Shown here: positions 23,173 to 43,101 of the stretch, in pieces
Numbering within the stretch: position 1 is the stretch's first letter
How the letters are laid out: every line of letters begins with the position of its first letter
From: Pseudomonadota bacterium
Lineage (GTDB): Bacteria > Myxococcota_A > UBA796 > GCA-2862545
Length of the DNA: 43,249 nt
NCBI GenBank assembly: GCA_046051915.1
Contig: JBJONI010000357.1
Span: 1 to 43,249 of the forward strand
Reading direction: 5' to 3'
Made by a program: the position numbers and the translations under genes
The notes under the pieces: generated by a model
What the model was told of the DNA's origin: nothing
Database searches by the model: none
What the model saw: only the letters and a program-made list of their open reading frames with translations

Positions 23173-24064
23173 ACCGCGCGGCCGTTGGGAGCCATCCGAG
23201 AACCTGACGCACCGCGTCGACCGAGAGGCTGTTCCCCACCAACCCCCACCGGCGCGTGGGCGCGATCACGTCCGGCCAAGTTCGTCCTTCGGGGAACCCG
23301 AGCAGCCGAAGGCCTTCCGAGGTCGACAACCGACGCAACACCCCGTTGTCGCGGACGTAGCTCCCCGCGTAGACGGGCGACCGCCCGTACGCGGAGGTGA
23401 AGGTCGCGACGGCAGCGACGGGGTCATCCGCGTCCACGACATGCATCGCGCCGCCAAAGCGGGCCAGGAGGGTAGAGTCGACCGCCGTCTCGGGCGCAGG
23501 GTTTGCGTCGAGGTAGCTCCGAAGCGGACGCCACGCGGCGGTGGGGCGCGTCGCAGGCCGCAGCGGCGCTTGACAGGCGACGAGGTAGAAGCGTCGTCGT
23601 TCCATCGGGATCCCGAGCTCAGTCGGACACGCGACCACCTCTCGCACGTCGTAGCCGAGCGAGGCGAGCGCGGTTCGCACCGCGTCGTGCGCCCTCGAGC
23701 CGACGAACCCCGGCACGTTCTCCATCGCGAACGCCCACGGCCGGGATGCCGTCAACCGTTCGAGCAGCACCAGCAAGGAGCGCGCGCGGGGATCGTCGAG
23801 GTCGCGCTGCGCCCCACGCACGGTGTAAGGCTGACAGGGAGGGCTCGCCCACCACAAGTCCGCCTCGGGCCAGGGCAGTTTGCGGACCTCTAAGTTGCGA
23901 ACCCCGAGCGGCTCGCCCCAAAACGCCTCGTAGGCGGCGGCGGCGACCGCGCTCGTGTCGAACGCGGCGACGACGTGCGCGGCGTCGACCGCGGCCCGGC
24001 AGCCCCCGATACCGGCGAAGAGCTCGAGGACCCGGCCACGGGGACGCGGCTCGCCGAGCGTCAC
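23141..24064 (-). CDS. Dnmt2/TRDMT1-like C5-cytosine methyltransferase (probable tRNA m5C38 methyltransferase)
   Basis: The recognisable motifs are:
- Motif I: RVLELFAGIGG
- Motif IV: ASPPCQPYTVRGAQRDLDDPRARSLL
- Motif VI: ENVPGF
- Motif VIII: GIPMERRRFYLVA
- Dnmt2-type target-recognition motif: TFTSAYGRSPVYAGSYV (compare eukaryotic CFTxxYGxYxEGTGS)
- Motif X: RRLSTSEGLRLLGFPE...RWGLVGNSLSV
The GTG start overlaps the TGA of the upstream giant gene. Confidence 0.85.
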   Translation of the reverse strand: MTLGEPRPRGRVLELFAGIGGCRAAVDAAHVVAAFDTSAVAAAAYEAFWGEPLGVRNLEVRKLPWPEADLWWASPPCQPYTVRGAQRDLDDPRARSLLVLLERLTASRPWAFAMENVPGFVGSRAHDAVRTALASLGYDVREVVACPTELGIPMERRRFYLVACQAPLRPATRPTAAWRPLRSYLDANPAPETAVDSTLLARFGGAMHVVDADDPVAAVATFTSAYGRSPVYAGSYVRDNGVLRRLSTSEGLRLLGFPEGRTWPDVIAPTRRWGLVGNSLSVDAVRQVLGWLPTAARFIGDSRPDPR

Positions 24065-27000: not shown

Positions 27001-29193
27001 GCCCTCGAACGCGGCGACGACGCCATCTCCGCACGCGACGACCTCGGAGACGCAGACCGCGGAGCACCCGTCTCCCGCCACGCGGTTGCCGTCGTCGCAC
27101 GCCTCGCGGGGATCCACGACGCCGTTGCCGCAAATCTCGACCCGGCAGGTCGCGGAGCAGCCGTCGCCCGCGACGGTGTTGCCGTCCTCACACTGCTCGC
27201 CGGGGTCGAGGACGGCGTTGCCGCACGCCTCCACGATGCAACGGCTCGAACACCCATCGCCCGACACGGTGTTGCCGTCGTCGCAGCCCTCGCTCGTCGC
27301 GCGGATGTTGTCGCCACACGTGCCTGCGACCTCGCGCTGGCACGCCGCCGAGCACCCGTCGCCCGAGCGCGTGTTGCCGTCCTCGCAGCCCTCTCCTGGA
27401 TCGACGATCCCGTTCCCGCACGCCTCGACGACGCACAGCGCGTTGCAGCCGTCGCCCGCGAGCAGGTCGCCGTCGTCACAGGCCTCTTGGCCCTCCACGA
27501 CGCCGTTGCCGCAGGTGCTGCCGGAGCCGATCGTCTCGATCGCGCAGGCGAGATCGCAGCCGTCACCGGCGACCAAGTTGCCGTCCTCACACGCCTCGCC
27601 GGGGTCGAGGACGCCGTCGCCGCATCGCTCGTCGGTGCAGAAGGGCGAGCAGCCATCGCCCGCCACCCCGTTGGCGTCGTCACAGTCCTCGCCCGCCGCG
27701 ACCAAGCCGTCGCCGCAGAATCGGTACACCTCGCTCATGCACGCTGCATCGCACCCGTCGCCGTCCAGCTCGTTGCCGTCCTCGCACTGCTCCCCAGGAT
27801 CCACCGTCCCGTTGCCGCAACCTTCCTCGAAGCAGGTCGGCGAACAGCCGTCGCCAGCATCGTTGTTGCCGTCGTCGCAAGCCTCCCAGTACGAGCGCAG
27901 GCCATCCCCGCACGCCTGCAGAAGCTCGATGTCACACTGGACGGAGCACCCGTCGCCTGCGACCAAGTTGCCATCCTCGCACTGCTCGCCGGGATCGAGG
28001 ATCCCGTTGCCGCAGTCCTCAAAGCGACACGCGGCGGAGCACCCGTCACCCGCCAGCAGGTTCCCGTCGTCGCAGGCCTCGCCGGCGTCGAACTGGCCGT
28101 CGCCACACGCAGGCGGCACCTCGATCTGACAGAGGGCCGAGCAGCCGTCGCCGTCCGTGCGGTTGCCGTCCTCGCAGCCCTCCAAGGGGTCCAGCGCGCC
28201 GTTGCCGCAGATCTCGAAGGCACAGCGCCCCGAGCACCCGTCACCGCGCGCCGTGTTGCCATCGTCACACTGTTCACCGGCGTCCACGATGGCATCCCCA
28301 CACAGACCGCCGACCTCGAACTGACAGCTCGCGGAGCAGCCGTCGCCGTCCACCTGATTGCCGTCCTCGCAGTCCTCACCGGGCTCCAGCACGCCGTTGC
28401 CGCACCCTTCGAGCAGGCACAGAGGGGAGCAACCGTCACCCGCGACGAGGTTGCCGTCATCGCACTGTTCTCCTGCGTCGCGGATGTCATCGCCACAGGA
28501 GGGGTCGATCTCGAGCAAACAACCCGCCGAGCAGCCGTCTCCGGACGCCGCGTTGCCGTCCTCGCACTGCTCTCCCGGGTCGAGGATCCCGTCCCCACAG
28601 GCCTCGGCCGTGCAGTAGGGCGAGCACCCATCGCCCGCCGACAGATCGCCATCATCGCACGCCTCGCCCGCGTCGAGGGTCCCGTCGCCACACGCCGGCC
28701 CCACGCCACCGCCGCCACCGGTGACGACCTCGATCGCGCAGTCGCTGTCGCACCCATCGCCGGCGGTCGTGTTGCCGTCCTCGCAGCCCTCGCCGGGATC
28801 GAGCATCCCATTGCCGCAGCCCTCTTCGACGCACAGCGGCGAACAGCCATCGCCCGCGACCAAATTGCCGTCATCGCAGGCTTCTCGGCCGTTCACGACG
28901 CCATCGCCGCACGAGATCGCCGCCGCGACCTCAAACGCGCAGCCGCCGTCGCAGCCATCCTCGGGCACCGAGTTGCCATCCTCGCACTGCTCACCGGGGT
29001 CGAGGATGCCGTTGCCGCAATACTCCTCGGACGTGCACGTCGCGTTGCATCCGTCGCGGCTGACGTTGTTGGCGTCGTCACAGACCTCACCAACGTCGAG
29101 GGCACCGTTCCCGCACAGCGACCCGGTCGGCACCGTCCCGCAAGCGGCGACCGCAAGCCAGATCCCCAAACCCACGACGTGTTGTGGCCGCAT
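24061..29193 (-). CDS. Giant lipoprotein (1710 aa): 29 myxococcal Cys-rich repeats followed by about 14 FG-GAP/VCBS repeats
   Basis: The lipobox is MRPQHVVGLGIWLAVAACG. Residues 27-974 form 29 units of CG(N/D)GxxDxGExC(D/E)DGNxxxGDGCSxxC. Residues 975-1710 carry repeated (A/G)D(L/V)(D/N/T)xDGxxD(L/V/I)(V/I)... FG-GAP calcium-loop motifs. Third-codon positions are GC-rich throughout. Confidence 0.9.
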   Translation of the reverse strand: MRPQHVVGLGIWLAVAACGTVPTGSLCGNGALDVGEVCDDANNVSRDGCNATCTSEEYCGNGILDPGEQCEDGNSVPEDGCDGGCAFEVAAAISCGDGVVNGREACDDGNLVAGDGCSPLCVEEGCGNGMLDPGEGCEDGNTTAGDGCDSDCAIEVVTGGGGGVGPACGDGTLDAGEACDDGDLSAGDGCSPYCTAEACGDGILDPGEQCEDGNAASGDGCSAGCLLEIDPSCGDDIRDAGEQCDDGNLVAGDGCSPLCLLEGCGNGVLEPGEDCEDGNQVDGDGCSASCQFEVGGLCGDAIVDAGEQCDDGNTARGDGCSGRCAFEICGNGALDPLEGCEDGNRTDGDGCSALCQIEVPPACGDGQFDAGEACDDGNLLAGDGCSAACRFEDCGNGILDPGEQCEDGNLVAGDGCSVQCDIELLQACGDGLRSYWEACDDGNNDAGDGCSPTCFEEGCGNGTVDPGEQCEDGNELDGDGCDAACMSEVYRFCGDGLVAAGEDCDDANGVAGDGCSPFCTDERCGDGVLDPGEACEDGNLVAGDGCDLACAIETIGSGSTCGNGVVEGQEACDDGDLLAGDGCNALCVVEACGNGIVDPGEGCEDGNTRSGDGCSAACQREVAGTCGDNIRATSEGCDDGNTVSGDGCSSRCIVEACGNAVLDPGEQCEDGNTVAGDGCSATCRVEICGNGVVDPREACDDGNRVAGDGCSAVCVSEVVACGDGVVAAFEGCDDGNRVAGDGCSASCLRESCGNGVLDAGEGCDDGNLSNADACPATCRPAACGDGYVRTGVETCDDRNLVGGDGCSAICQTESCGNGRLDVGEGCDDGNAVSTDNCRACQAARCGDGVVWAGQELCDDGNTVSGDGCDATCDSDEACGNAVVDPGEVCDDGDLDATDACTSLCRYAACGDGFVHRGYEGCDDGNLLDGDGCSSSCVPVGCGNGVVEVGELCDAGGFNGLQGSNCFAGCIPTPLTFQRLTDLDLDATNAVGVSPRYLRVADLNGDFAPDVITASEAYGDVTTAINRGDGRLIGHNFRAVADGTYDIELADLNRDGRPDLIATGYNVDQITVSLGNGTFFAANTTYTAGDGPLDIAVGEMTGDQNLDVAVLNAIANTVQVFRGSATGALTSISTTATLGTTAEGLALGDVTGDGLLDVVVANAGSDNVSVMQGFGNGTFGTAQTYTTRVGAFGDDPRDIDLADVTLDGKLDLIVTCSTSQDFVVLVGQAGGTFGAPIPVSTAVGGNGLSPQNAEVADLDADGEPDVVVATASSNDLMVFFGIAGGAAFESPVRLVLATATSDAGTTPQALTLVDLDSDGDRDIAVANRGTDDVAVLFNDGAGNFTVQGWYAGSNGLTGSSTYDVAAADLDADGLVDLVSAEMVSDYVNVHYQLLTGVWGVVQGIDINYTLKSIDMATLDVGPADDWIVVDFTNDYAWLGTKRTAGDYSAGSAYDFGSSYGDDPYFATAGDIDRDGYTDILAATGDYSYSWMYASGPSSPGTLTGSTYGFYLGYLPDQVKLANVVGDVDLDLLAARASSNLVEVRIGDAVRSTSAIGSTVTNLTTSTSSTAGRSPVWIEATDLTRDGFVDIITANQTSGDVSLFEAIAPGTFAAVQIVPMTTGGGTYTTRQVAYGDFNDDGILDLAAVHEGQDTVGVALGFGDGQFSAPQVLNVGDGPTTLGVSDLDGDGRDDLVVGNNLASTLTVYLSLGL
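26272..29115. repeat. Coding array of 29 degenerate ~100-bp Cys-rich repeat units (two-unit super-period)
   Basis: See the giant lipoprotein above. In units 1-20, CDDGN-type and DPGE(Q/G)CEDGN-type units alternate. Confidence 0.85.
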
Positions 29194-31663: not shown

Positions 31664-32638
31664 TCAGGGCATCACGACGCGCCCGAGGACGTCGGGACAG
31701 ACGACGAACGGGTTCGCGTTGCCCTGGCGTGTCTTGATCTTCAAGCTGCGGGCCACGTCGGCCTCTGTCGGGGGATCCGCGTCGTGCCAAGCGACATACA
31801 GCGCCTCGTCCTCGGGCAAGACGTCCATCGCGTACCGCAACTGCATGTACAGCAGGGCACGGGCCACGTCGCCCTTGTGGTCGTCGCGAGGCTCAAAAGC
31901 GAGGTTGCCAAGCGCGTCGCGCCCGTGTCGGCTCCCCCCCTCCTGCCAGTCGATCCCGCTGGTCACCGGTCGGAGGGGATCGGACCCGCGACGCGAGTTC
32001 GCCTCCGCCATCGTGGGAAACAGGTGGTGGAGGTCGCAGCGGCGCTGCCCGATCTCGGCCCCCAGCGATTGAGGCCACGTGTGCTCGGTGTTCATCACAT
32101 CGCCCGCCGGCTTGGTGGCCCCCACAGCGACCTTTTGGCCCGTATAGACGCAGCGGACCTCGCCAGCGGCGTCCTTGTCGAGGATCAGGAACATCCAGTC
32201 CGTGGTGTCGGAGTAGTCGCACGACCCGTTGGTCGCGACCGCCGTCGCGAGCCGGCTCCAGAGGTCCGCACCATCGACGGCGTCCCGGACCGCGTCGTAG
32301 TAGCCAGCGTCGCTGCACGGCTTGCAGGCCGGATCGCCCTCGACGATCGCCTCGGCGTCGGGCACCGCCCGGTCGCAGTCGTTGTCGCGCCCATCGCAAC
32401 GCTCGGGTGCCCCCGGGTAGCTGAACGCGTCGTCGTCGTCGCAGTCGACGTCAGAAGCCGCGCCATCCGCGTCCGCGTCGGTCGCCGATGGCGTCTCTCC
32501 CGGCGTGTCGGATGCGGTCTCCGTGGAGGACGTCTCCTCCGCCGTCTCGGACGCACCGGTGTCCTTGCCGGGACCACCCGCGCCTGAGCAAGCCCACACC
32601 GTTGCCGCCACGACTGCCCAAGGACGCCACGCCCGCAT
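31664..32638 (-). CDS. Endonuclease I-family extracellular nuclease lipoprotein with a MopE-like Cys/Asp metal-binding motif
   Basis: The lipobox is MRAWRPWAVVAATVWACSG (GGAGG lies 5 nt upstream). An acidic Thr/Ser/Glu linker follows, then DCDDDDAFSYPGAPERCDGRDNDCD (MopE-type motif). The nuclease core reads VYTG......MNTEHTWPQS......DLHHLFPTMAEANSRRGSDP....FEPRDDHKGDVARALLYM, matching the Endonuclease_1 signature. Confidence 0.8.
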   Translation of the reverse strand: MRAWRPWAVVAATVWACSGAGGPGKDTGASETAEETSSTETASDTPGETPSATDADADGAASDVDCDDDDAFSYPGAPERCDGRDNDCDRAVPDAEAIVEGDPACKPCSDAGYYDAVRDAVDGADLWSRLATAVATNGSCDYSDTTDWMFLILDKDAAGEVRCVYTGQKVAVGATKPAGDVMNTEHTWPQSLGAEIGQRRCDLHHLFPTMAEANSRRGSDPLRPVTSGIDWQEGGSRHGRDALGNLAFEPRDDHKGDVARALLYMQLRYAMDVLPEDEALYVAWHDADPPTEADVARSLKIKTRQGNANPFVVCPDVLGRVVMP

Positions 32639-32685
32639 CGGACCTCCGAGGGCCATGCTCTAGCCGATGCAAGGGCCTGAGGCCC

Positions 32686-33648
32686 TCACGCGGGGCGACC
32701 GCACACGGCGCAGCCCGCCGCCGTGGCCACCGCCTCGCGCGCCGCCAAGCATCCTCGGTGAAAGACGCGTCCGCAGGCCTGCCGGCAGGCGGCCGCGACG
32801 TCGTCCGCCACGTCTCGGCCACAGATCCCACACGTCCCCCGCTCGGCGGCCACCTGTTCGGCGTCGGCAGAAGCGACGGGGAGGCCTTGATCGGGGGCCG
32901 CGACCGGGCCGAGCCACACGAGCCGGCCGAGCCAACCCGACGTGCTCGCCCCCAGCACGGTCAACGCGGCGAACCGCCAAGGCGCGACCGGGACCGGCGT
33001 CGGCAGGCCGAACGCGTCCGCCGCCGCCGTGTCCCCCGCGAGCCAACCACCGAGCACCCCCAACGTCAGCGGCGCGCTCGCGGCGACGAGCGTGGCACCC
33101 AAGGCGATCCAGCCCGGGGCGCGGCTCGGGTGCCCATCGGCCAACACCCCCGCGAGTCGCGTGGCGGTCCAAGCCGCGCCAAACCCGCCGCACCAGGCAA
33201 CGGCCGCCGTAGGCTCCACGCTCACGGCGAACGCCCACAGCACGGCCCAGCCCGCCCAGCGCAAGCTTGCATCCACGAGGTCCCGCCCGCGGTAGGGCGT
33301 TCGGTCTGGCCAGACCACACCGGGGGGCCGCTCCACCACAGGATCCCCACGCCGCGGTTCCGGCAGCAGGTAGACGAGCTCGTAAGGGACGATCCCGAGG
33401 TCCTCGAGCCGCTCCCCAGGCGCAAGATCGCGGCCCCGTGCGCGTAGGGTGAACCGCCGACGGGAGCCGTCCTCCCACCAGCCGCCAAGTCCCACGTCAC
33501 GCGCCATGCGGGCCGTGAGGTCCTCGGCGCCGAGGTAGGTCGGCACCACGAGGTCGACCAAGCGCGGCTGCCGGTCGATGACTTGCACGCGCAGCGGCAC
33601 GGTGCCGGCCGCGCCGGGCAGGTCGTTCCCGGGTACCCCCGAAACCAA
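32686..33648 (-). CDS. Membrane protein: N-terminal ubiquitin-like (YukD/EccD-N-like) domain, about 4 TM helices, C-terminal C4HC3 zinc finger
   Basis: The N-terminal sequence VPLRVQVIDRQPRLVDLVVPTYLGAEDLTARMARDVGL......FTLRARGRDLAPGERLEDLGIVPYELVYLLP follows a beta-grasp pattern. Four hydrophobic segments follow. The C-terminus reads CGICGRDVADDVAAACRQACGRVFHRGCLAAREAVATAAGCAVCG. The start is uncertain: TTG 33648 sits 3 nt after the upstream stop, and GTG 33600 is the alternative. Confidence 0.6.
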   Translation of the reverse strand: MVSGVPGNDLPGAAGTVPLRVQVIDRQPRLVDLVVPTYLGAEDLTARMARDVGLGGWWEDGSRRRFTLRARGRDLAPGERLEDLGIVPYELVYLLPEPRRGDPVVERPPGVVWPDRTPYRGRDLVDASLRWAGWAVLWAFAVSVEPTAAVAWCGGFGAAWTATRLAGVLADGHPSRAPGWIALGATLVAASAPLTLGVLGGWLAGDTAAADAFGLPTPVPVAPWRFAALTVLGASTSGWLGRLVWLGPVAAPDQGLPVASADAEQVAAERGTCGICGRDVADDVAAACRQACGRVFHRGCLAAREAVATAAGCAVCGRPA

Positions 33649-33650
33649 GG

Positions 33651-34598
33651 TCAGGCCTTGCCGGGATCGACGGTCGCCTGAAGCTCTTCGACCGCGCGGT
33701 CCAACGCGGGCAGGCAACGCTCAAACTGCTCGAACCACCGCTGCCATTCGCGGTCGTCGTGGTGCGGCTCCGGTCGCCGATCGTCGAGCGCCCGCACCAA
33801 CTCCGCGACTTGCTCGAACCGATCGGTCAACGCGCGCACGGCGTCGGCATCGTAAAACCCGCGCGCATGGCCGACGAGAGAGCCCGCAGCCCGGTACAGC
33901 ACGCGGTCCGACGTACCCTCCTCCAACAGCACGAACTCTGCGGCAACCACCGCAGCGTAGAAGCCGAACGACGCCACGTCCAACTCCTGAAGGACGGCGG
34001 TGCGGTAGACCAGCGTGAGCGCGCGACGGCTGCGATCGACGAAGCGCAGGACCATCGGCTTGAGCGCGGACTCTGCCGCCCGCGCCACCCGTCCCGCGCG
34101 CGGCACCGGCACCGCCAGCTTCGCCATCCGTCCCAAGCGCACCCGAAGGTGGGCGAGCGCGACGCCATCCTCGATCTCCTCGTCCGCCGGCACCAGACGC
34201 GGCTGGATGCGTTCCACCGCCCGCGCGCTCTGCGGCTGGTCGCTCGTGTCAAACACGGGTCGCAGCGCCAGCGGATCGAGTGGCTCGTCGCGCACGAGCC
34301 ACAGCGTGTAGTCCCCATCGGTGCCTTGCTCTTCCAGGGGCACCACGCGATCGGACGCCAGCCGGATCCCTTGACCACGCGCGGTCAGCCCAAACCCGGC
34401 ACGAACACGCGCCTCGTAGCGGTCGAGCGTCTGCACGAGCTCGACGCCGAGCCCTTGCACGACACCATGGCCGTGGAGGAAGTGGGCGTGACGCTCCAGC
34501 GCGCGGCGATGGAAACTCTGCTCGACGATGAGGTCAGCAGCCGTCAAGCACAAGCCCTCAAACGGGCGGAGGCGAACGAGCGGTTCGTCGTGGGCCAT
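33651..34598 (-). CDS. Hypothetical protein (315 aa), CIS-operon member of unknown function
   Basis: ATG 34598 overlaps the upstream TGA (TGATG junction). The sequence is MAHDEPLVRLRPFEGLCLTAADLIVEQSFHRRALERHAHFLHGHGVVQGLGVE... followed by a helical C-terminal half. Third-codon positions are GC-rich. I can name no family. Confidence 0.7.
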   Translation of the reverse strand: MAHDEPLVRLRPFEGLCLTAADLIVEQSFHRRALERHAHFLHGHGVVQGLGVELVQTLDRYEARVRAGFGLTARGQGIRLASDRVVPLEEQGTDGDYTLWLVRDEPLDPLALRPVFDTSDQPQSARAVERIQPRLVPADEEIEDGVALAHLRVRLGRMAKLAVPVPRAGRVARAAESALKPMVLRFVDRSRRALTLVYRTAVLQELDVASFGFYAAVVAAEFVLLEEGTSDRVLYRAAGSLVGHARGFYDADAVRALTDRFEQVAELVRALDDRRPEPHHDDREWQRWFEQFERCLPALDRAVEELQATVDPGKA

Positions 34599-35722
34599 CA
34601 AACACTCTCATCAAAGCGGAGGGTAAACGCGACATGGGCCGGCCGTTCGTGGCTGACGACGTCGGCGATGCGGCGCAGGACATGCTCCGCGCGCTCGCCG
34701 AACCGGCCGCGAAACGCATCCGCGGGCTCGAGGAGCAGCACGAAGAAGTCGGTGTCGGCGTGGGCCTCTGGGGCGACCAGGAAGCACGCTTGTGCCTCGC
34801 GGCGGTGGTATCGGCCCACGACGTCCTCACCGCCGACGAGGTGGGCTCGCCCCAACGCCATCGGCGCCGGCCGCTGCCGCTCGCGCGCGCGCACGGGCGC
34901 CGTCGTGAGGACTTCGACCATCTCCTCGACGCCCACCCGGGTGCCGCGGGTTCGGTACAGGCGGATCGCGCGACGCACCAGCTCGCGCTGCTGATGAAGG
35001 GGCAAGCTCGCATCGAGGTCGAACCCCACCCAACTCGCGAGCCACGGCAGAAACTTCGGGGCGCACGCCAACGGATCGGTGAGGTCGGCCAGCCCGTCGA
35101 GGGTGTCGGTGACCGTCGTGTGCTGGTGCTGCAGCAAGAACAGGAAGCGGCGCAGCGGGTGGGCGTCGACGTCACGCTCCTCGGAGCGGCGGTCGAGCGC
35201 CGTGCCGCCAACCCGCGCGAGCTGCGTCGAGGTGACCGTCTCGACCTCACGGATCGCGACGGGCCCCTCACCAGAGAACAACGCCGGGAGAAACCTAAGG
35301 TATCCGCGAACAGGAACAACCAGAACGAGCCGATCTTGGGCTTCTAGCGCGCCAAGACGGCCCGCCGGCCCGTCGACCACGGGCCGCATGCGCACCAGGG
35401 CGTCAGGGACGAAGAAGCTCGCAGGCTGGCCGTTCGCGAGCTCGCGCTCCGCACGAATCACGCTCACCTGACCGCTCGCGGCGTGATGCACTTCCACGGC
35501 GCGTACGACACCCGGTCGCTCCCCACGCCCGAGCTCCACGAGCCGGTAGCTCACGGGGTTGCCCACCGCGCGCTGCAAGTGCAGGCGCGCGGAACGCACC
35601 GAGAGCCGCGCCGTCACGACCGCCGCGAGGCGCGCCAGATCCCCCTGCCCGACCGCGAGCGCGGTGCGTTCCGAGGTGGGCGACGGCGAGGCCGGCCCGA
35701 CGAGCATGCGCCGGCGCTTCAC
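34598..35722 (-). CDS. Baseplate protein, P2 gpI-like 'phage tail protein' domain (Afp12-like position)
   Basis: The sequence YLRFLPALFSGEG.......HPLRRFLFLLQHQHTTVTDTLDGLADLTDPLACAPKFLPWLASWVGFDLDASLPLHQQRELVRRAIRLYRTRGTRVGVEEMVEVL...ERPAHVAFTLRF fits the family pattern (YLPxiY...FLxRFL...fDPxxAPxxFLxWLAxWxG...rRxLi..a..lyr.RGT..Gl...kPAHT). GTG 35722 overlaps the Baseplate-J TGA (GTGA). The alternative start is ATG 35707. Confidence 0.8.
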   Translation of the reverse strand: MKRRRMLVGPASPSPTSERTALAVGQGDLARLAAVVTARLSVRSARLHLQRAVGNPVSYRLVELGRGERPGVVRAVEVHHAASGQVSVIRAERELANGQPASFFVPDALVRMRPVVDGPAGRLGALEAQDRLVLVVPVRGYLRFLPALFSGEGPVAIREVETVTSTQLARVGGTALDRRSEERDVDAHPLRRFLFLLQHQHTTVTDTLDGLADLTDPLACAPKFLPWLASWVGFDLDASLPLHQQRELVRRAIRLYRTRGTRVGVEEMVEVLTTAPVRARERQRPAPMALGRAHLVGGEDVVGRYHRREAQACFLVAPEAHADTDFFVLLLEPADAFRGRFGERAEHVLRRIADVVSHERPAHVAFTLRFDESV

Positions 35723-38700
35723 GCGCGTTCCTCCGCCCATCGGATCCGAACCTCGCGAACGAGGAACAGGTCGACACCAGGCAGCGAGAGGATCGCATCT
35801 CCCGGAGAGGTCTCCCAGCCCGGCGGCGGCACGCGTCCTCCTTGCAGGGTCGGAGCGACGGGGAACAGGCGAACGTCCACCACGTGCCGGACCTCTGGCA
35901 CCGCGAGCACGAGACGACCAAAGTCGGCCGCGAACACCGTCGCGCCGAAGGGCCAACCCTCCCCGTCTAGACCACCCGCCCACGGGTCGAGGAACGTCCT
36001 GACCCAAGCCTGTGCCGCTTCGCGCGCCGCCACCACGTCCGCGTGGGCGCGCAGCCGCACGTCGAGGCTGACATCGACCGCCTGGAACGTCGCGAGGCGG
36101 ACCTTGGGCCGCACATTGACGAGGCAGCGCCGCTGGACGTAGTGCTGGACATGGTCCAACAACCCGGCGGAGAGGAACGGATCCGGCAGCGCCTCATGGG
36201 CGCGCTTACGCGGAAGGATCACGACCTCGATGCCCCCGTCCGCGCCCACCGACCCGACGCACGCGGCGCGTGCAACCTCCGGACTCGCCTCGGTCGCGAT
36301 CACCTCGAAGTCCTTGCGGGTCACCGCCCGGTCGCGGCTGGTGAGCACCGACGGCGCGCGCCGCACGATCTCGTCGACCGTCTCGGCGTCGCGTCCCCCC
36401 ACGGCGGGCAGGAGGTTGATCACGTCGACGACATCGGCAAAGCCTTCACTGAGCGCGATCTCCGCGGCAGCTACGTTACCCGCCGCTCCCGGGATCACGT
36501 GGTACGACGCCACGGTCACGTTGAACGTCCCGATCGGGAGGATCCTGCCACGGATGCCGTTGCCGAAGGTGAGCGTACCGTCGACGGCGTCGACGACGAA
36601 GACCCGGTCGTCCTTGCTGGCGGCCGCGAAGCTGTTCCCGGGCGCGACGCGCCAAGCACGAGGCTGCGCCTCGCCCTCATCAACCCAGACCGCCAGATCG
36701 GTCGTCCGGTCACGGGCCACGTCGGACGCGTCCGGCAGCCAAAGCGGCTGGTGGCGCAGGTGGACGACTTGCCCTGGGATCCCCTCGCCGCTGAACTTTT
36801 CCATCCGGAAGCCGTGGAGATTTCGGGCTTCCACGGTGTTCGGCAGCAGATGGGTCACGGGCGGCAGCACAGGGAACCGCCCCTCGGCGACCCGGAACAA
36901 CCCGCGCAACCACACGCCCTCTGGCGCCGGTCGCATCGGCTGGTCGAGCGAGAAGGTGAGGCTGCCGCTGCGATCCATCCGCCAGGCGCCTGCGCTCTCA
37001 TCCGCCGTGCCGCTGGTCAGCCGTGTCCAACGCCGAACCCCTGGGGTCGGCTCCTGCAGCAGCTCCCAATGGACCGAGAACCCCTGCGGGAGCCACGTCT
37101 CGCCGGCCTGCAGAAACATCGTGTGCAGGCGGCTCCCGACAGGCAGGGGCCGGTCAAAACGCAGGTACAGCGCGCGGTGGCCGCCGTCAGGATCCTCGAT
37201 CGCGATCTGGGGGTCGAAGGGAAGCGTGGAGGCGACATCGCCGTCGAGGCGCCGCAGCAAGCGCGTGAAGCGACGGTTCGCGGGGCGGTGCTCCACCGCA
37301 ACGACGCGGGTTCCGGGGAGCGGCTCGTCGTAGACCTGCGCGCCCGGGATGCGTTCGAGGCTGATCCGTGCGTCATGGACGCGAAGCGTCACGGCCGAGG
37401 GCGGGGCGGTGGGCTCGGTCTGGTACGACAGCGCCGCGCGGGTGAGCTCGATGCGCAGCCAGCAGGTGGTACGTTGGCCGACCTCGGTCGGCGCGATGCC
37501 GGGGAGGTGTTCGGCAGGGTCGAGCGCCAGACGCAGCCGCCGACGCTCCGCGAGCGGTGCGCCGTCCGGGTCGAGATCGGCGAACGTGAAGCGCGCGAGA
37601 TCGAGGTCGCCGACCTGCACCGTCTGCCAGCCCGCAGCCGTCCGGTACGTCAGTTGCAAGTGGTAGTCGCCGTCGGGCTCCGCGACGATCTCCCCGTCCC
37701 GCTCGAACGCGATGTCGAGTTCGATCAGCACGGGCTCCCGGCGGCGGTTCGCTAGGAGGTCACTGCCGAGGAAGAACTTCATACCGAGCAACGCCGGCAG
37801 CGTCGGCAGCGGTTGGAACGGGGTCACCGGCAGCTCGCCGGCGAGGATCTCGCTCGCAGCGGAGACCTCGGGTCCCCACGCGAGGAACACATCGGCCGGA
37901 CGCTGCCACACGGCGTCGATCCGCAGCGCCGGAAGGACCCCGAGCAAATCCACGCTCTCGCGACGCTCCGCCCGCAGGTTGAACCCGTCCGCCGCGAGAT
38001 CGAGGAGCGGCCCCGTGAGCACGAACGACGCGCCGACCTGTTCCACCGCGCCGGCTGGCACCGGCTCCCAGGTGTCGCCGCGCCGCCACGACCAAGCGTA
38101 GTGCGGGAAGACGCCCTCCCGCCCCAGCCGCAGTCCGTGGTCGACCAGCGTAAAGCGAAGCGTCCAGCCCGGCCGAAGCGGCGGCACATTGGGGACGAAG
38201 AACTCGAGCGTACGACCCACGGCACGAACCTGCCAGCTCGTGATCTCGTGCTCCTCGCCGCCGCGATCGTCGCGCCACGTGATCGTCAGCTCGCCCTCTT
38301 GGCCCATCAGGTCCGCGAGCCAACGCTCCATGTCGAGTCGGCCCCGAATCCATCCCTGCTGCGGCAGGTCGTCCGGCCAGGGGATCGCGTCGTCCACCGC
38401 CCCCAGCTGCGTGATCGGCGCCATCCACGGGAGTTCCGCTGCAAGCAGCGGCTCTGGCAGGCCCATCACCTCGCCGGGCGGCTCGGGGAAGGGCGCGATC
38501 GGCGTCCAGCCTTCGCCGTCCAAGCGGGGATACTCCCAAGCAAACAACCCCGCGACGGGGAGGCCGACCGCGCCGTCGTCGCCGACCTCGAGGACCGACC
38601 GAAGCCGAAGGGCGCCACCCGGGCCCTCGCCGGCGTCGACCCGTCCCATCCGCAGGAAGTCGTCGTGGCGCAGGTAGATCCAATGATCCGGGGTGTAGCT

Positions 38701-39246
38701 TTGCGGACCGTCCCGAGAAGGATCGAGGTCGAGCAGCGACAGCCCGCGTTCGCCAAAGCGGAGGGCACCGCTCCCCTCGTCGAACACGTCCCACGCGATC
38801 TCGCGCGACATCGGCTGGGGCCCGGCGGCGACGGCGACAATTCGGTCGACGCGCGCCCCATGCACGCTCACCGGCTCGGCGGTGAGGAAGTGCAGCGCAT
38901 CCCCGCCTTGACGTTGCCGCGTCGAGCAACGCTCCGAGGCGGGAAGTTCGACGACGGCCGTGTCGGGTTGGCGAAGCGAGAAGGTCAGCGGGACGACCGC
39001 AGGCCGCGCGTTGCGCCGCTCCTCGCCAATGAAGTTCAGGAAGTGGACGTAGGTCTTATCGGGCACCCGATTCAGACGGTACAACGTCATTTCCGTCATC
39101 CAAGCGAACAACTGGACCAGCGTCATGCCCGGGTCGCTGTCGCCCAGGTGCGTCCACTCGGGACAATACTGGGGGATCAGCGCGCGAGCCTCGCGCACCA
39201 GGTCGTCGTAGCTGCGGTCGTCGAGGCGTGGAGGCTGAATCGGCAT
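35719..39246 (-). CDS. Baseplate J-like 'putative baseplate assembly protein' (Afp11/gp6-like), 1175 aa
   Basis: MPIQPPRLDDRSYDDLVREARALIPQYCPEWTHLGDSDPGMTLVQLFAWMTEMTLYRLNRVPDKTYVHFLNFIGEE is the hallmark N-terminus of this family. The C-terminal Baseplate_J region reads ...VTVASYHVIPGAAGNVAAAEIALSEGFADVVDVINLLPAVGGRDAETVDEI. Confidence 0.9.
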   Translation of the reverse strand: MPIQPPRLDDRSYDDLVREARALIPQYCPEWTHLGDSDPGMTLVQLFAWMTEMTLYRLNRVPDKTYVHFLNFIGEERRNARPAVVPLTFSLRQPDTAVVELPASERCSTRQRQGGDALHFLTAEPVSVHGARVDRIVAVAAGPQPMSREIAWDVFDEGSGALRFGERGLSLLDLDPSRDGPQSYTPDHWIYLRHDDFLRMGRVDAGEGPGGALRLRSVLEVGDDGAVGLPVAGLFAWEYPRLDGEGWTPIAPFPEPPGEVMGLPEPLLAAELPWMAPITQLGAVDDAIPWPDDLPQQGWIRGRLDMERWLADLMGQEGELTITWRDDRGGEEHEITSWQVRAVGRTLEFFVPNVPPLRPGWTLRFTLVDHGLRLGREGVFPHYAWSWRRGDTWEPVPAGAVEQVGASFVLTGPLLDLAADGFNLRAERRESVDLLGVLPALRIDAVWQRPADVFLAWGPEVSAASEILAGELPVTPFQPLPTLPALLGMKFFLGSDLLANRRREPVLIELDIAFERDGEIVAEPDGDYHLQLTYRTAAGWQTVQVGDLDLARFTFADLDPDGAPLAERRRLRLALDPAEHLPGIAPTEVGQRTTCWLRIELTRAALSYQTEPTAPPSAVTLRVHDARISLERIPGAQVYDEPLPGTRVVAVEHRPANRRFTRLLRRLDGDVASTLPFDPQIAIEDPDGGHRALYLRFDRPLPVGSRLHTMFLQAGETWLPQGFSVHWELLQEPTPGVRRWTRLTSGTADESAGAWRMDRSGSLTFSLDQPMRPAPEGVWLRGLFRVAEGRFPVLPPVTHLLPNTVEARNLHGFRMEKFSGEGIPGQVVHLRHQPLWLPDASDVARDRTTDLAVWVDEGEAQPRAWRVAPGNSFAAASKDDRVFVVDAVDGTLTFGNGIRGRILPIGTFNVTVASYHVIPGAAGNVAAAEIALSEGFADVVDVINLLPAVGGRDAETVDEIVRRAPSVLTSRDRAVTRKDFEVIATEASPEVARAACVGSVGADGGIEVVILPRKRAHEALPDPFLSAGLLDHVQHYVQRRCLVNVRPKVRLATFQAVDVSLDVRLRAHADVVAAREAAQAWVRTFLDPWAGGLDGEGWPFGATVFAADFGRLVLAVPEVRHVVDVRLFPVAPTLQGGRVPPPGWETSPGDAILSLPGVDLFLVREVRIRWAEERA

Positions 39247-39249
39247 ACG

Positions 39250-39636
39250 TCACCCGCCCGTCGAGACGTCGAGGTTCATGACCTGTTCCTGGTTCGACGA
39301 TCGAACCCGGTAGCGCACGTCGACCGCGATGCGGCCCTGAGCCGTGGCCTCCGCTTTGACGTCGACCACATCGATCCGTGGCTCCCAGCGCTCGAGGGCG
39401 GACCGAACATGGTAGGCCACCAAGCTCGCGTTCGCCGACGTGTTCGGGGTGTACAACAGCTCATGGATGCGGCATCCAAAGTCAGGCATCTTCTGCCGTT
39501 CCCCGGGACGCGTCCCGAGGATGATCGACATCGATTCCCGGATGTTGTCCTCCGCAGAGGACAACGCCAGCCCGCCCGTCGCGGGGTCGAAGGCGAAGGG
39601 AAACGCCACGCCACGACCCAAGAAGTCTCGGTTCAC
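39250..39636 (-). CDS. GPW/gp25-family baseplate wedge protein (Afp9-like)
   Basis: MNRDFLGRGVAFPFAFDPATGGLALSSAEDNIRESMSIILGTRPGERQKMPDFGCRIHELLYTPN......VRSALERWEPRIDVVDV fits the gp25 pattern (iLxTxxGERxMxPxFGxxl..l.F.p...WEPRi). The start is GTG. The stop lies 3 nt before the Baseplate-J ATG. Confidence 0.9.
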   Translation of the reverse strand: MNRDFLGRGVAFPFAFDPATGGLALSSAEDNIRESMSIILGTRPGERQKMPDFGCRIHELLYTPNTSANASLVAYHVRSALERWEPRIDVVDVKAEATAQGRIAVDVRYRVRSSNQEQVMNLDVSTGG

Positions 39637-39745: not shown

Positions 39746-40774
39746 TCAGGTCGGCATCGTGTTCGAGCAGAACTGGAACTCGGTGGCGTAGCCGCGGCGG
39801 ATCTCGAAGAAGTGACGGCTCCCGACGACGTACACCTCGGGGTTGAACCCCGTGGGGTGCCCCTGGAAGCGCACCTTGGTGCCGGCATGGATCTCCGCGT
39901 TCCCGTCGACGCGCGCGCTCCCTCGCAGGAAGTTCCGCGCGGCTCGATTCAGCTCCGCCGCGGCGATCTCCTTCGCCGACCCCTGCGTGTGGTGCGTGAC
40001 GTCGGTCACGTGGCTCGTGCCCTGCCAGATCTGCGACGCGACCGACACAGCACTCCGGCCCCCGCCGATCTTCTCGACGTCGCCATCGCCAGCCGTGCCC
40101 TCGACCTTGTCCTTTTGGCCGTAGTCCCACCCGGTCGTCTTGATCTCCGCGGGCATCCCGACCGCGTTCATCTCGTAGTCGAGGTCCTCGAGCGCATCGG
40201 TGCTGACCACGGTGCTTCGGCCGCCAAACTGGGGTTTCACAAAGTCAATCCTCCCCTCGTTCGCCATCAGCAAGTAGCCGTTGCGACCGGCGAGCCGCTT
40301 CATGAACTCGAGATCGGACTCGTTGCGCTGCGTGATGTGATCGTTCTTTTGGGCCGTGCTGTCGATCTTGCCGACCTTCAGCCCAGCGCGGCCGAGCACC
40401 TTGCGGACGATGTCGGCGTCGGTCATCTTCTCGTACGTCTCGGTACGACGGCTGGCGCTGGCCTTGATCAACGGGTCCATCGCCATGACGGTCATCACCT
40501 CACGGCCTTGCTTGTAGCTGTGTCGCATGCCCGTCACGACGCCGACGAACATCTTGCGCTGCGTCTGGCCGACGGAGACTTCGACGTCCGACCCGATCTG
40601 GATCGACGACCAAGCGCCATGGTCGAGGTTGAGGCAGATGCGGGCCACGCCGATCACGTCGACGTGGTCCTCGACCATGAGGTACTCGAGGCCGGCGTTC
40701 TCGGCTTGGGAGTACGTCTTACCGCCCACGGTCGCGGTGAACCGGTAGGCCTCGTGGCGGGGAGGCGCGCTCAT
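39746..40774 (-). CDS. Phage late control gene D (gpD)/VgrG-N-like baseplate hub, 342 aa, no spike domain
   Basis: The sequence ...LEYLMVEDHVDVIGVARICL.......VEVSVGQTQRKMFVGVVTGMRHSY.......MDPL......RRTETYEKMTDADIVRKVLGRAGLKVG.IDST......ITQRNESDLEFMKRLAGRNGYLLMANEG...F.....GNAEIHAGTKVRFQGHPTGFNPEVYVVGSRHFFEIRRGYATEFQF is typical of Phage_GPD. The ATG overlaps the upstream TGA (ATGA). Confidence 0.9.
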   Translation of the reverse strand: MSAPPRHEAYRFTATVGGKTYSQAENAGLEYLMVEDHVDVIGVARICLNLDHGAWSSIQIGSDVEVSVGQTQRKMFVGVVTGMRHSYKQGREVMTVMAMDPLIKASASRRTETYEKMTDADIVRKVLGRAGLKVGKIDSTAQKNDHITQRNESDLEFMKRLAGRNGYLLMANEGRIDFVKPQFGGRSTVVSTDALEDLDYEMNAVGMPAEIKTTGWDYGQKDKVEGTAGDGDVEKIGGGRSAVSVASQIWQGTSHVTDVTHHTQGSAKEIAAAELNRAARNFLRGSARVDGNAEIHAGTKVRFQGHPTGFNPEVYVVGSRHFFEIRRGYATEFQFCSNTMPT

Positions 40775-43101
40775 TCGGCCTCCTCAGGCTCGCCACCGCG
40801 ACGCCCCGAGAGCGCGTCGAGCAGGTCGGACCCGACCCGCGGCAGGTTGCTTGCGCCTGTCGCGGTGTCACGATGAACCGGGCGTGGCGCACCGGCTCCC
40901 GAAACGGGCGCGGGGACGGGCGCTGCCGAAGGCCGAACCCGCTCGGCCGCGCCGGTCGAGGACACGGCACGCTCCGGTGCGACCGGCGCCGATGGCCCCG
41001 TCGGCCCCACCGCGGGGCTGCCACCAGCGCCGGTGGAGGGCGATGCGCTGGAAGGCGCCGACGGTGCAGCCGCCGCGGCACCACTCGGACCCGAGGCGCC
41101 GGCCCCGGGACCCGCGGAACCGGCACCTGAACCGGTCGGGCCCGACGGGCCGGCAGAGCCCGCGCCAACGCCTTGCCCGCCCGACGCACCCGAAGGCGCA
41201 CCACCGCGCGGCCCGCGCGGGCCCGGGCCGGACGCCGGTGCGCCGGGGCCAGCGGTCGCGGCCGCAGGGCCCGAGGTCGCCGCCGCGCCGCCCGCGGGAG
41301 ACGCGGGGCCGACGCCCGAAGTCGCCGGACCGCCCTGGGCGGCGCCACCGCCCGGTGAAGCCGTCGCTCCGGGACCCGTCGGAGTGGCGCCAGCGCCGGC
41401 TCCGATGCCCGACGTCGCGCCGTCCGCGGGTGCCGTCCCGGCAGCCGTGGTGTCGCCTGTCGGTGCCGACGCCCCTGCCGGAGGCGTCCCCGACCCTCCG
41501 CGGGGAGCGCCTGGCCCAGACGCCGCGCCGGCACCCGGACCCACGCCCATCCCACCGGACGCTGGCGACCCGCCAGCCGGCCCGGAACCCGTCGACGCAC
41601 CGGCGCCGCCACGTGGCGTCGGTCCGCCCGTGGAGGCACCCGGCCCCGGCACAGCCGGCTCGACGGCGTCGCCCGCTGCCGCGCCGCCACCGCCCGTGCC
41701 GGCACCGCCGCCAGCAGGACCACCCGTACCTGCGCCAGCGCCAGCCGGACCACCCGTACCAGCACCCCCGCCAGCTGGACCGCCTGCGCCGCCGCCACGA
41801 GGACCACCGCCGCCCGTCGGCGCGCCCGTACCGGCACCGCCGCCAGCAGGACCGCCTGCCCCGCCGCCGCCGCGAGGACCGCCAGGCGTGCCGCCAGCAG
41901 GGCCGCCCGCGCCACCGCCGGCGCCGCGAGGACCACCGCCGCCGGCACCGCCCGCGCCACCGCCGCCGCGAGGACCGCCGTCGCCGTCACCGCCGCCGCG
42001 AGGACCACCGCCGCCGGCACCACCCGCGCCACCGCCGCCGCGAGGACCGCCGCCGCCGAAGTTGGGGCGCTCTGGGCGACCCCCGCCGTCGTCGTCGTCG
42101 CCAAAAACGTTGTCGATCGCTCCTTCCAACCGGTGGACGTCGCGCACGACGGAGCCGACGGCGCCCGTCACCGCGTCGACAGTCCGCGCCACGCCGACGG
42201 CGACGTCGCGCACGTCGTCCGCGACGTCCAGCACGAAGTCAGCCGCCTCGCCGATCGCCCCGCTGATCGCATCCGCGACGCTGTTGAGCTGCGCGCCGAG
42301 CGCGCCGTCGTCGGCGAAGATGCCACCCAGACCCGGTGCGAGGCGTCCGAGCTCTTGGAACGGGTCCACAGCCCCGCTCGCCAGCCATGCCGCCGTGTTG
42401 GCCGCGCGCCGCGCGCCCTCCAGCACGTCCGCCACCGCCGACGAGCCCGGGATCACCAGCTGCATGCCCGGCACGACCGACAGCGGGTCGAGGATGCCGT
42501 TCGCGCGGGCGATATCCTGGAAAGGCACGCCCGCGGCTGCGGCGAGCGACGACAACGTTTGGCCGGCGCCGAGCGTCATCGTCTGCGTGGCGGAGAGCGC
42601 CGAGGCGGACAGCCCGCTGAGTGCGCCGCCACCAAGCTTCATCGCCGCGTTTGTGTTCGCGGCGTTGTGCTCCATCAGTTGCACGGCGACCTTCGCGCGG
42701 ACGGGCGAGCCGTCGGGCGCGAACATCAGGTAGCTGACGTCCAGCTGCTTCAGGATGCAGGTGAAGTCGAACCCACCCCACGAGAAGCGCAAGTACGGCG
42801 GGCGGGTGTAGGTCTTGCCGTCCTTGACGACCTTGACCGTCTGCTCCAACAGGTTGCGGAACCCGTTGACGGACCCCGACACCGTCCCGCCCTCACGCGT
42901 GGAGTCGAAGAAGAACTCCATGCTCAAGTTCGCGGGCTGCCCCTTCTCGTACGTCAGCGCCGGGTGCGCCACGTTGCCCTTCGGCTTCCAGTCCGCTCCA
43001 TCGGAGAGCTGGAACTCCTTGGGGTTAAACTGGACCTTCAGCGATGAGCCGGAGTCCAGGTTCGTGAACACCGCCTTCTCGTTACCACCAGAAATCGCCA
43101 T
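40771..43101 (-). CDS. CIS tube-initiator-like protein with a LysM domain (Afp7-like) carrying a ~415-aa Gly/Pro/Ala/Ser-rich low-complexity extension
   Basis: ATG 43101 has GGGAGG 5 nt upstream. The N-terminus is MAISGGNEKAVFTNLDSGSSLKVQFNPKEFQLS...LSMEFFFDST...PPYLRFSWGGFDFTCILKQLDVSYLMFAPDGSPVRAKVAVQL (tube-like N-domain). The LysM domain reads TMTLGAGQTLSSLAAAAGVPFQDIARANGILDPLSVVPGMQLVIP. From residue ~334 to ~750 the sequence is G/P/A/S/T-rich. The alternative start is GTG 43167. Confidence 0.85.
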   Translation of the reverse strand: MAISGGNEKAVFTNLDSGSSLKVQFNPKEFQLSDGADWKPKGNVAHPALTYEKGQPANLSMEFFFDSTREGGTVSGSVNGFRNLLEQTVKVVKDGKTYTRPPYLRFSWGGFDFTCILKQLDVSYLMFAPDGSPVRAKVAVQLMEHNAANTNAAMKLGGGALSGLSASALSATQTMTLGAGQTLSSLAAAAGVPFQDIARANGILDPLSVVPGMQLVIPGSSAVADVLEGARRAANTAAWLASGAVDPFQELGRLAPGLGGIFADDGALGAQLNSVADAISGAIGEAADFVLDVADDVRDVAVGVARTVDAVTGAVGSVVRDVHRLEGAIDNVFGDDDDGGGRPERPNFGGGGPRGGGGAGGAGGGGPRGGGDGDGGPRGGGGAGGAGGGGPRGAGGGAGGPAGGTPGGPRGGGGAGGPAGGGAGTGAPTGGGGPRGGGAGGPAGGGAGTGGPAGAGAGTGGPAGGGAGTGGGGAAAGDAVEPAVPGPGASTGGPTPRGGAGASTGSGPAGGSPASGGMGVGPGAGAASGPGAPRGGSGTPPAGASAPTGDTTAAGTAPADGATSGIGAGAGATPTGPGATASPGGGAAQGGPATSGVGPASPAGGAAATSGPAAATAGPGAPASGPGPRGPRGGAPSGASGGQGVGAGSAGPSGPTGSGAGSAGPGAGASGPSGAAAAAPSAPSSASPSTGAGGSPAVGPTGPSAPVAPERAVSSTGAAERVRPSAAPVPAPVSGAGAPRPVHRDTATGASNLPRVGSDLLDALSGRRGGEPEEAE
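40854..42102. repeat. Low-complexity GC-rich coding tract (Gly/Pro/Ala codons, with local ~63-bp periodicity around 41930-42060)
   Basis: GGPRGGGGAGGAGGGGPRGGGDGDGGPRGGGGAGGAGGGGPRG-type units are present. All six frames are open here, which produces ORFs 40719..42104, 40851..42266 and 41033..42733 in the track. Confidence 0.8.

Follow-up and report, generated by a model that had tools for sequence, protein, structure and literature searches.

A ubiquitin-like, zinc-finger membrane protein at the end of a contractile injection system operon of uncultured Myxococcota, and its proposed role as a membrane dock

A stretch of DNA of 43,249 nucleotides (contig JBJONI010000357.1 of assembly GCA_046051915.1, hereafter the window) carries the baseplate operon of a contractile injection system (CIS), and the final gene of that operon is the subject of this analysis. 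Located at 32686..33648 (-), it encodes a protein of 320 amino acids (aa) that combines a ubiquitin-like (Ubl) domain, four predicted transmembrane helices, and a RING/PHD-type zinc finger, as delineated from the open reading frame (ORF) and its start codon, a family alignment, and an AlphaFold2 (AF2) model. The window has a G+C content of 71%, so long spurious ORFs are frequent in it; the third-position GC bias of this ORF is like that of the window's confident genes. The gene starts at a TTG codon (33648-33646), with two bases separating it from the TGA stop of the preceding gene (33653-33651). The original prediction, made by a model from the sequence alone, had the start 3 nt after the preceding CIS gene. 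The TTG start is supported because homologue P0002, 82% identical, has its N-terminal methionine at the aligned position. A GTG start at 33600 was rejected, since it would truncate the first beta strand and homologues reach further upstream, as was a longer TTG start at 33717, which would overlap the preceding gene by 67 nt and finds no support among homologues. A scan for promoters and terminators near the operon end was uninformative.

The genes leading up to it on the same strand are those of a contractile tail baseplate. They encode a tube-initiator-like protein (40771..43101 (-); Pfam CIS_tube, E 1.4e-28, and LysM, E 2.8e-7) with a long Gly/Pro/Ala-rich C-terminal extension, a gpD/VgrG-like baseplate hub (39746..40774 (-); Phage_GPD, E 3.2e-15), a baseplate protein of the gp25/TssE/Cis9 type (39250..39636 (-); GPW_gp25, E 1.2e-25), a large baseplate wedge protein of 1175 aa of the gpJ/TssF/Cis11 type (35719..39246 (-); Baseplate_J, E 2.8e-12), a second wedge protein of the gpI/TssG/Cis12 type (34598..35707 (-); Tail_P2_I, E 7.9e-14, together with a PHROG tail-protein match), and a 316-aa protein whose gene directly precedes that of the membrane protein. 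The placement of the gene inside a CIS operon, claimed at the outset, is thereby confirmed by Pfam.

Complete clusters of this kind, found in relatives, show what lies further upstream. Their 5' part comprises genes for a Pvc16_N cap, a sheath, a gp19 tube protein, a small gene, a second sheath-like protein, a second gp19 tube protein, and a protein of 1100-1300 aa; their 3' part runs through the tube/LysM, GPD, gp25, J, P2_I, and 316-aa genes to the membrane-protein gene. With its Pvc16 cap, T4 gp19-type tubes, and LysM tube initiator, the CIS belongs to the extracellular-CIS lineage, and this subtype has so far been seen only in metagenome-assembled genomes (MAGs) of the uncultured Myxococcota type. 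Neither the window nor the complete clusters have a tail-fibre or receptor-binding gene in the interval from P2_I to the end of the operon, and viral contigs scanned with the tube/LysM protein yielded no relatives.

Domain architecture of the membrane protein

The N-terminal domain, residues ~15-97 (33358..33606 (-)), is a beta-grasp fold of the YukD/EccD type according to AF2, Foldseek, and Pfam, and is predicted to be cytoplasmic. The AF2 model was built from an alignment of 17 sequences and has a mean predicted local distance difference test score (pLDDT) of 75; over residues 16-96 it shows a b-b-a-b-a-b arrangement with pLDDT values of 80-93. When the model was compared with the Protein Data Bank (PDB) by Foldseek, the top matches were EccD chains of mycobacterial ESX systems, followed by dozens of ubiquitin, SUMO, and ISG15 entries with target-normalised template-modelling scores of 0.7-0.79. 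The assignment to the YukD/EccD type rather than to ubiquitin itself is made because the Pfam YukD model (PF08817) matches 23 of 26 relatives at E <= 0.1 (best E 4.6e-8) and the ubiquitin model only 2. The window protein scores 14.1 bits against YukD as a whole and 16.8 bits as an isolated domain, compared with a gathering cut-off of 27 bits; judging from these profile scores, its N-terminal domain is a divergent YukD relative lying below the cut-off for a family call. The original prediction had located such a domain at ~40-125, and its fold was borne out, with boundaries about 25 residues away from those predicted.

With a mean column identity of 68%, the Ubl domain is better conserved than any other part of the protein, and R47, R50, D51, W58, R63, R64, and R71-G72-R73 are among the invariant residues. 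It lacks a terminal Gly-Gly, running on instead into a linker and the membrane helices, and no E1, E2, or JAB-type genes were found among the window genes; the free C-terminal glycine tail and the E1/E2-type genes expected of a conjugatable modifier are both missing here. Type VII secretion genes, namely those for WXG100 proteins and an FtsK-type ATPase (EccC/EssC), were likewise found neither in the window nor in the annotated flanks of relatives.

Four predicted transmembrane helices follow (residues 121-144, 148-170, 178-203, and 223-245; 32914..33288 (-)), as had been proposed initially. They were delineated from the AF2 model, hydrophobicity, and the distribution of Lys and Arg, and the four AF2 helices coincide with four hydrophobicity peaks that are kept across 28 full-length relatives. 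The sequence of this segment is variable while its hydrophobicity is conserved, and an invariant W245-x-G247 motif in the family alignment marks the end of helix 4. In the same 28 relatives, Lys/Arg clusters precede helix 1, separate helices 2 and 3, and follow helix 4, and the 1-2 and 3-4 loops are almost without Lys or Arg. By the positive-inside rule, this pattern fits an N-in/C-in topology that would place both soluble domains in the cytoplasm, in keeping with the orientation suggested from the even number of helices. The seven cysteine ligands of the finger also argue for a reducing, cytoplasmic location of that domain.

The C-terminal domain (residues 272-317; 32698..32835 (-)) is a predicted C4HC3 binuclear zinc finger of the RING/PHD superfamily, likewise predicted to be cytoplasmic and recognised by its ligands, profile matches, Pfam, and AF2. 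Its ligands are arranged as C273-x2-C276-x11-C288-x3-C292-x4-H297-x2-C300-x12-C313-x2-C316, exactly the spacing C-x2-C-x11-C-x3-C-x4-H-x2-C-x12-C-x2-C first read from the sequence. The original prediction made the finger depend on conservation of these residues, and they are conserved: all eight are invariant in 17 homologues, and among 50 relatives six are invariant and two are kept in at least 90%, within a finger whose mean column identity is 42% in the same 50 sequences. Over the Cys/His region, the AF2 model forms a small b-b-a unit; finger-specific matches are not visible in the full-length Foldseek list, which is filled with ubiquitin-like matches.

Searched against known structures, a profile of the 50 finger sequences matched Pygopus PHD fingers at 6e-6 to 2e-5 and the RINGs of RCHY1, Arkadia, KSHV K3, and AMFR at about 3e-4 (K3 at 3.7e-4), and the membrane E3 ligases KSHV K3, AMFR, and synoviolin are among its matches. 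Pfam zf-RING_2 (PF13639) was found in 40 of the 50 relatives at E <= 0.01 (best 3.2e-9), PHD in 25, and Prok-RING_1 in 6, the comparison with prokaryotic RING families being made solely through this last model. The window finger scores 26.9 bits against zf-RING_2 when isolated (E 5.9e-6), only slightly short of the cut-off of 27.3 bits, and 21.7 bits within the whole protein, and against PHD (PF00628) it scores 21.5 bits as a domain and 16 bits in the whole protein, for a cut-off of 24. The protein as a whole thus lies below every curated cut-off examined (YukD, RING, and PHD) and is a called member of none of these families. No E2-like gene was found near it in the scans of the window genes.

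The order and spacing of the ligands are compatible with a RING and within the PHD range, and the cross-brace geometry is predicted solely from profile homology to RING/PHD domains. Like Pygopus PHD, RING-H2 E3s, the RING-CH of KSHV K3, and Prok-RING_1, the finger has a C4HC3 ligand set with PHD-like spacing and a b-b-a core. Two positions can be read against what is known of RING and PHD fingers: PHD fingers conserve a tryptophan two residues before ligand 7, and the residue after the last cysteine can be a basic linchpin. The tryptophan is absent in all 17 aligned sequences, where small residues with the consensus G-x-x-C are found, and the residue after the last cysteine is a near-invariant glycine rather than a basic linchpin. 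RING-CH domains have C-x-C at ligands 3-4 and about 7 residues before the histidine, compared with C-x3-C followed by x4 here, and RINGv is not among the 25 Pfam families most often matched across the 50 relatives. Relatives P0073 and P0080 do have C-x-C at ligands 3-4. In relative P0021, a RING-H2 pattern, C-x-H-x2-H (C-G-H-I-F-H-T-G-C), is seen, ligands 3/4 having effectively moved along by one residue; this pattern speaks for the RING/PHD superfamily overall and not for PHD proper. On these sequence features, the finger fits neither the PHD nor the RING-CH family cleanly. A PHD- or RING-CH-like cross-brace finger had been proposed; the ligand order, the conservation, and the matches to PHD and RING profiles bear this out, while the RING-CH spacing and the PHD tryptophan do not.

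A word-indexed search of 5.8 billion proteins returned 17 relatives of the membrane protein, none of them named beyond "hypothetical protein", and an exhaustive search of 1.84 billion representatives returned 69 clusters (at 50% identity) at E <= 0.001, some 30 of them with full-length members (~290-320 aa) and many of the others looking like fragments. In one-genome-per-species GTDB contigs, the family occurs at 33 loci, all in MAGs, whose labels are mostly Myxococcota or Deltaproteobacteria, a few being implausible. Neither this protein nor its 316-aa neighbour has a match in PHROGs, and, within the literature that could be searched, no paper connected contractile injection systems with YukD or RING fingers. 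The family is unnamed and without a Pfam model, and the window protein is a real protein that has not been described before.

A headless TssK-like neighbour and linkage to one CIS subtype

The 316-aa protein encoded directly upstream (33651..34601 (-)) has no Pfam, PHROG, or PDB sequence match (phmmer being used for the PDB), and the Pfam TssK model matches none of the 43 relatives scanned (43/43 negative). At least 220 close relatives were found, all of ~311 aa and all unnamed. Its identity emerges from structure prediction. An AF2 model from 43 sequences, with a mean pLDDT of 82, has a helix at its N-terminus, then a beta-rich domain, and a bundle of helices at its C-terminus. Among its Foldseek matches in the PDB, TssK chains take the first 14 places (E 9e-6 to 2e-4, probability 1.0), Francisella IglD comes next, and the best matches include headless N-terminal TssK constructs; in the viral library, the matches are phage receptor-binding and tail-fibre proteins. 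On the strength of this model, the neighbour is a shoulder and neck of the kind shared by TssK and phage receptor-binding proteins, ending where the TssK head would begin. In canonical TssK, that head is the part which grips the TssL/TssM membrane complex, and the shoulder is the part which binds the gpI/TssG-type wedge.

Relatives of the neighbour show a further trace in their last helix (residues ~274-311, e.g. P0105 and P0107), where 11 of 43 give sub-threshold WXG100 matches at E 0.02-0.24. These matches are unverified and interdependent and may be coiled-coil noise; they stand beside a YukD-type protein, and both families belong to type VII secretion.

The two genes travel together and with the rest of the baseplate operon. 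In 29 of the 32 genome loci with upstream sequence, the 316-aa, P2_I, and Baseplate_J genes lie directly upstream of the membrane-protein gene, and gp25 is present wherever the contig reaches. Metagenome loci anchored on the tube/LysM gene, and therefore chosen without reference to the membrane protein, give the same picture: all eight that contain the 316-aa gene have the membrane-protein gene after it (8/8). The distance from the stop of the 316-aa gene to the start of the next gene is -4 to +70 nt in 28 of 37 loci, many of which overlap by 1-4 nt. Pairwise divergence of the membrane protein and the 316-aa protein is correlated with r = 0.85 across 38 unique loci (Mantel p <= 0.001), and the correlation between the 316-aa protein and P2_I is looser (r = 0.62). 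No fusions of the two genes were found, all listed homologues of either being of single-gene length. Co-occurrence with CIS loci, on which the original prediction had relied, is therefore found for one CIS subtype, without the link being absolute.

In 8 loci, variable genes amounting to 0.6-3.4 kb are inserted between the 316-aa gene and the membrane-protein gene. Inserts of this kind in relatives (L008 7924-8814, L057 18313-18762, L020 7774-9978, and L022 7870-9958) encode an alpha/beta-hydrolase, a pilin-like protein bearing a methylation motif at its N-terminus, or a pair of uncharacterised proteins with hydrophobic N-termini, and could be payloads or extra accessory parts.

Membrane docking and competing readings

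TssK is described as joining the T6SS (type VI secretion system) baseplate to its membrane complex (PMC5813253). By analogy, we propose, with a probability of about 0.55, that the membrane protein is a dock for the headless TssK-like connector and tethers the CIS to the inner membrane. The headless connector would sit on the P2_I-type wedge protein through its shoulder domain, and the membrane protein would supply, in place of the TssK head, the missing membrane-embedded distal end. Its Ubl domain, its zinc finger, or both would bind the TssK-like trimer or the neighbouring wedge protein, serving as protein-protein docking modules and not as parts of a conjugation pathway. The baseplate would in this way be held at the inner membrane, and firing would resemble that of the T6SS or of CisA systems, rather than that of a free particle equipped with tail fibres. 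A membrane anchor or firing regulator, in functional analogy to CisA or the thylakoid-anchored CIS, had been suggested from the sequence, and the headless TssK-like fold of the neighbour lends support to that suggestion as a probable function. The close spacing and shared divergence of the two genes and the lack of a fibre gene at the operon end also speak for a dock.

Comparison with known systems places this proposal among several lineage-specific arrangements. Like EccD/YukD of type VII (ESX/Ess) systems, the protein has a cytoplasmic N-terminal YukD-type Ubl domain fused to a polytopic membrane domain in the setting of a secretion machine. EccD has 11 transmembrane helices and no C-terminal zinc finger, whereas the protein described here has four helices, such a finger, and a place in a contractile-tail operon. 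As in the T6SS, with TssK and TssL/TssM/TssJ, a gene of TssK fold follows wedge genes of the gpJ/gpI type (TssF/TssG-like) and stands right before a membrane-protein gene; unlike in the T6SS, the TssK-like protein has no head and the cluster is otherwise that of an extracellular CIS. Searched against the Pfam models for TssL, TssM, and TssJ, the membrane protein gave no match at E <= 0.1.

A functional parallel is Streptomyces CisA (SCO4242), a membrane adaptor that is needed for contraction and firing and is absent from the purified particle (PMC12237407). CisA is a bitopic protein whose cytoplasmic N-terminus is disordered and whose periplasmic part is a substrate-binding-like domain; it occurs with type IId clusters in another host lineage, and has no Ubl domain or zinc finger (PMC12237407), in contrast to the four helices and two predicted cytoplasmic domains found here. 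All that homologue searches with the present protein brought up were members of its own family, unnamed and of ~300 aa, with no sequence relationship to CisA evident, the two being set apart by the description of CisA. The putative anchor of the haloarchaeal T6SS, Hbor_38620, and Anabaena Cis13 are also lineage-specific membrane elements that co-occur with one CIS clade, and both are thought or have been shown to hold extracellular-lineage CISs at a membrane (PMC11566945; PMC8894136). Hbor_38620 has 6 transmembrane helices and one cytoplasmic domain of ~150 aa and is encoded upstream of its cluster (PMC11566945), while Cis13 forms a trimer resembling a tail fibre and carries a C-terminal transmembrane helix of its own (PMC8894136); neither is reported to have a Ubl or RING domain, unlike the protein described here. 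By analogy, this protein would work most like the CIS membrane adaptors, built from unrelated parts.

Several observations weigh against docking. The transmembrane helices are only moderately hydrophobic, and the AF2 model has a predicted template-modelling score (pTM) of 0.48, which makes the relative arrangement of its domains unreliable. At three genome loci (L025, L029, and L039), no CIS genes are found in flanks of 10 kb on each side, and metagenome contig L005 has none in ~4 kb upstream and 1.6 kb downstream. The end of a CIS operon is also the usual position of payload genes. Finally, the tail fibre Alg19 of AlgoCIS is built on a base of this same fold, which binds the gpI-type protein at its C-terminal loop (PMC13314943); the TssK-like fold does not prove membrane docking, because an extracellular fibre has such a base.

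The protein might instead regulate firing, relaying an envelope or kinase signal to the baseplate with its Ubl domain and RING-type finger as a switchable latch, which we consider rather unlikely as an account distinct from a passive anchor. What speaks for it is a conserved module found just downstream of the gene in at least 20 of the 33 genome loci (e.g. L006 7617-14169; also L020, L022, L025, L028, and at least 15 others). Besides a convergent gene for a ~665-aa protein of unknown function, the module encodes a pseudokinase-like protein of ~700-790 aa, which matches the PknE kinase by profile at 2.7e-9 and has HRD replaced by HGS, a ~563-aa protein with an SLT lytic-transglycosylase domain, and a ~232-aa protein with a hydrophobic N-terminus. 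A Ser/Thr-kinase-like ORF comes after the module in three of the four loci inspected (L020, L022, and L025), and at L025 the membrane-protein gene lies between a kinase gene and the module with no CIS genes nearby. CisA, moreover, is needed for firing and is not part of the particle (PMC12237407). The module may serve the system as an accessory for regulation or cell-wall remodelling; it is absent from the window and from the closest relatives L010 and L001, which shows that the membrane protein does not depend on having it alongside. No sign of phosphorylation or of a switch was seen, and a regulatory role overlaps with the anchor model without excluding it.

Two further readings would take the protein out of the machine's attachment altogether. 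Payload genes of extracellular CISs usually sit at the operon end, and delivery into prey or host cells of a eukaryote-like, membrane-inserting mimic of a RING E3 ligase would agree with the presence of a finger of a mostly eukaryotic type, whose profile matches membrane E3 ligases, in this position, which is also that of two putative effector genes in the Anabaena CIS cluster (PMC8894136). This is judged improbable. Virtually all clusters of the subtype carry the gene, whose divergence runs parallel to that of the TssK-like gene, whereas payloads are typically swapped between related clusters; here the variable genes are instead those inserted ahead of it. With its four transmembrane helices and two folded domains, the protein would fit awkwardly into the tube lumen, the start of its gene is closely tied to a structural gene, and its finger has no tryptophan before ligand 7 and a near-invariant glycine in place of the basic linchpin. 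The ubiquitin-mimicking effector offered as an alternative in the original prediction is disfavoured on the same grounds, namely conservation throughout the subtype and divergence that tracks the TssK-like gene. Least probable is a holin-like release or lysis factor that would free particles together with the nearby lytic transglycosylase, as a small polytopic membrane protein at the operon end of an extracellular-lineage cluster, with an SLT-domain protein conserved nearby in many relatives, might suggest. Neither the window nor the closest relatives have an SLT gene near it, holins are much smaller and have no folded cytoplasmic domains, conservation is highest in the Ubl domain and not in the membrane segment, and a particle without a receptor-binding fibre would be of little use outside the cell. 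The payload, lysis, and purely regulatory readings are accordingly ranked as less likely than a membrane dock.

A broader proposal, offered tentatively and considered doubtful at present, is that the locus represents an unrecognised T6SS-like class in uncultured Myxococcota, in which a baseplate of the extracellular lineage is joined through a headless TssK-like connector to a Ubl/four-helix/RING dock, with this latch under the control of the pseudokinase, Ser/Thr kinase, and lytic-transglycosylase module.

Extracellular-lineage injection systems become attached to a membrane, and so turn from released particles into cell-bound guns, in different ways: the cases solved so far each rely on a protein peculiar to their lineage, be it CisA, Anabaena Cis13, or the anchor of haloarchaea. 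The dock proposed here would be a fourth solution, and the locus offers a testable pair in the headless TssK-like connector and the membrane protein encoded directly after it. If the broader proposal of a T6SS-like class is right, both hallmark domains of the ubiquitin system would be at work, without conjugation, in a bacterial secretion machine, and the YukD/EccD idea of a membrane scaffold would have been borrowed from type VII secretion. That a Ubl fold and a RING/PHD-type finger are united in a single membrane protein of a bacterium, with no genes for conjugation found nearby, has a bearing on the use of these domains before ubiquitin signalling or apart from it.

Further observations at the locus and its relatives

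The surroundings of the family members outside CIS clusters vary. At L025 (5810-10915), the relative follows a gene for a 1379-aa Ser/Thr kinase. For L039 (7788-10042) and L029/L005, one relative overlaps a 451-aa gene of unknown function by 4 nt, and the other lies between two unannotated genes for proteins of ~480-550 aa, near a DivIVA gene.

In the window, an endonuclease I gene (31664-32656 (-)) follows 29 nt downstream of the membrane-protein gene on the same strand; its product bears a signal sequence of the lipoprotein type along with a metal-binding motif like that of MopE. It was considered as a part of the system and rejected, as it follows the membrane-protein gene elsewhere only in the closest relative, L010, and carries the lipoprotein-type signal. 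The tube/LysM gene at the other end of the operon probably starts at ATG 43101 (MAISGGNEK...), as indicated by the N-termini of homologues. Its extension (40771-42400 (-)) consists of ~550 aa of low complexity and is absent in several relatives, in which the protein has 215-222 aa (L060 and L063); the coding score of the gene is low for its length, and the extension may or may not be translated.

Further away, a protein of 1704 aa with many Cys-rich DUF4215 repeats and FG-GAP repeats is encoded at 24061-29175 (-), overlapping by 4 nt a gene for a C-5 cytosine DNA methylase (23141-24064 (-)), near which no restriction enzyme is evident. A stand-alone tube gene of the T4 gp19 type (3547-3978 (-), E 1.4e-24) lies ~29 kb from the baseplate operon, adjoining a prepilin peptidase gene (2727-3542) and an unannotated gene for a 280-aa protein (4001-4843), and in its isolation it resembles the orphan Hcp genes of the T6SS.

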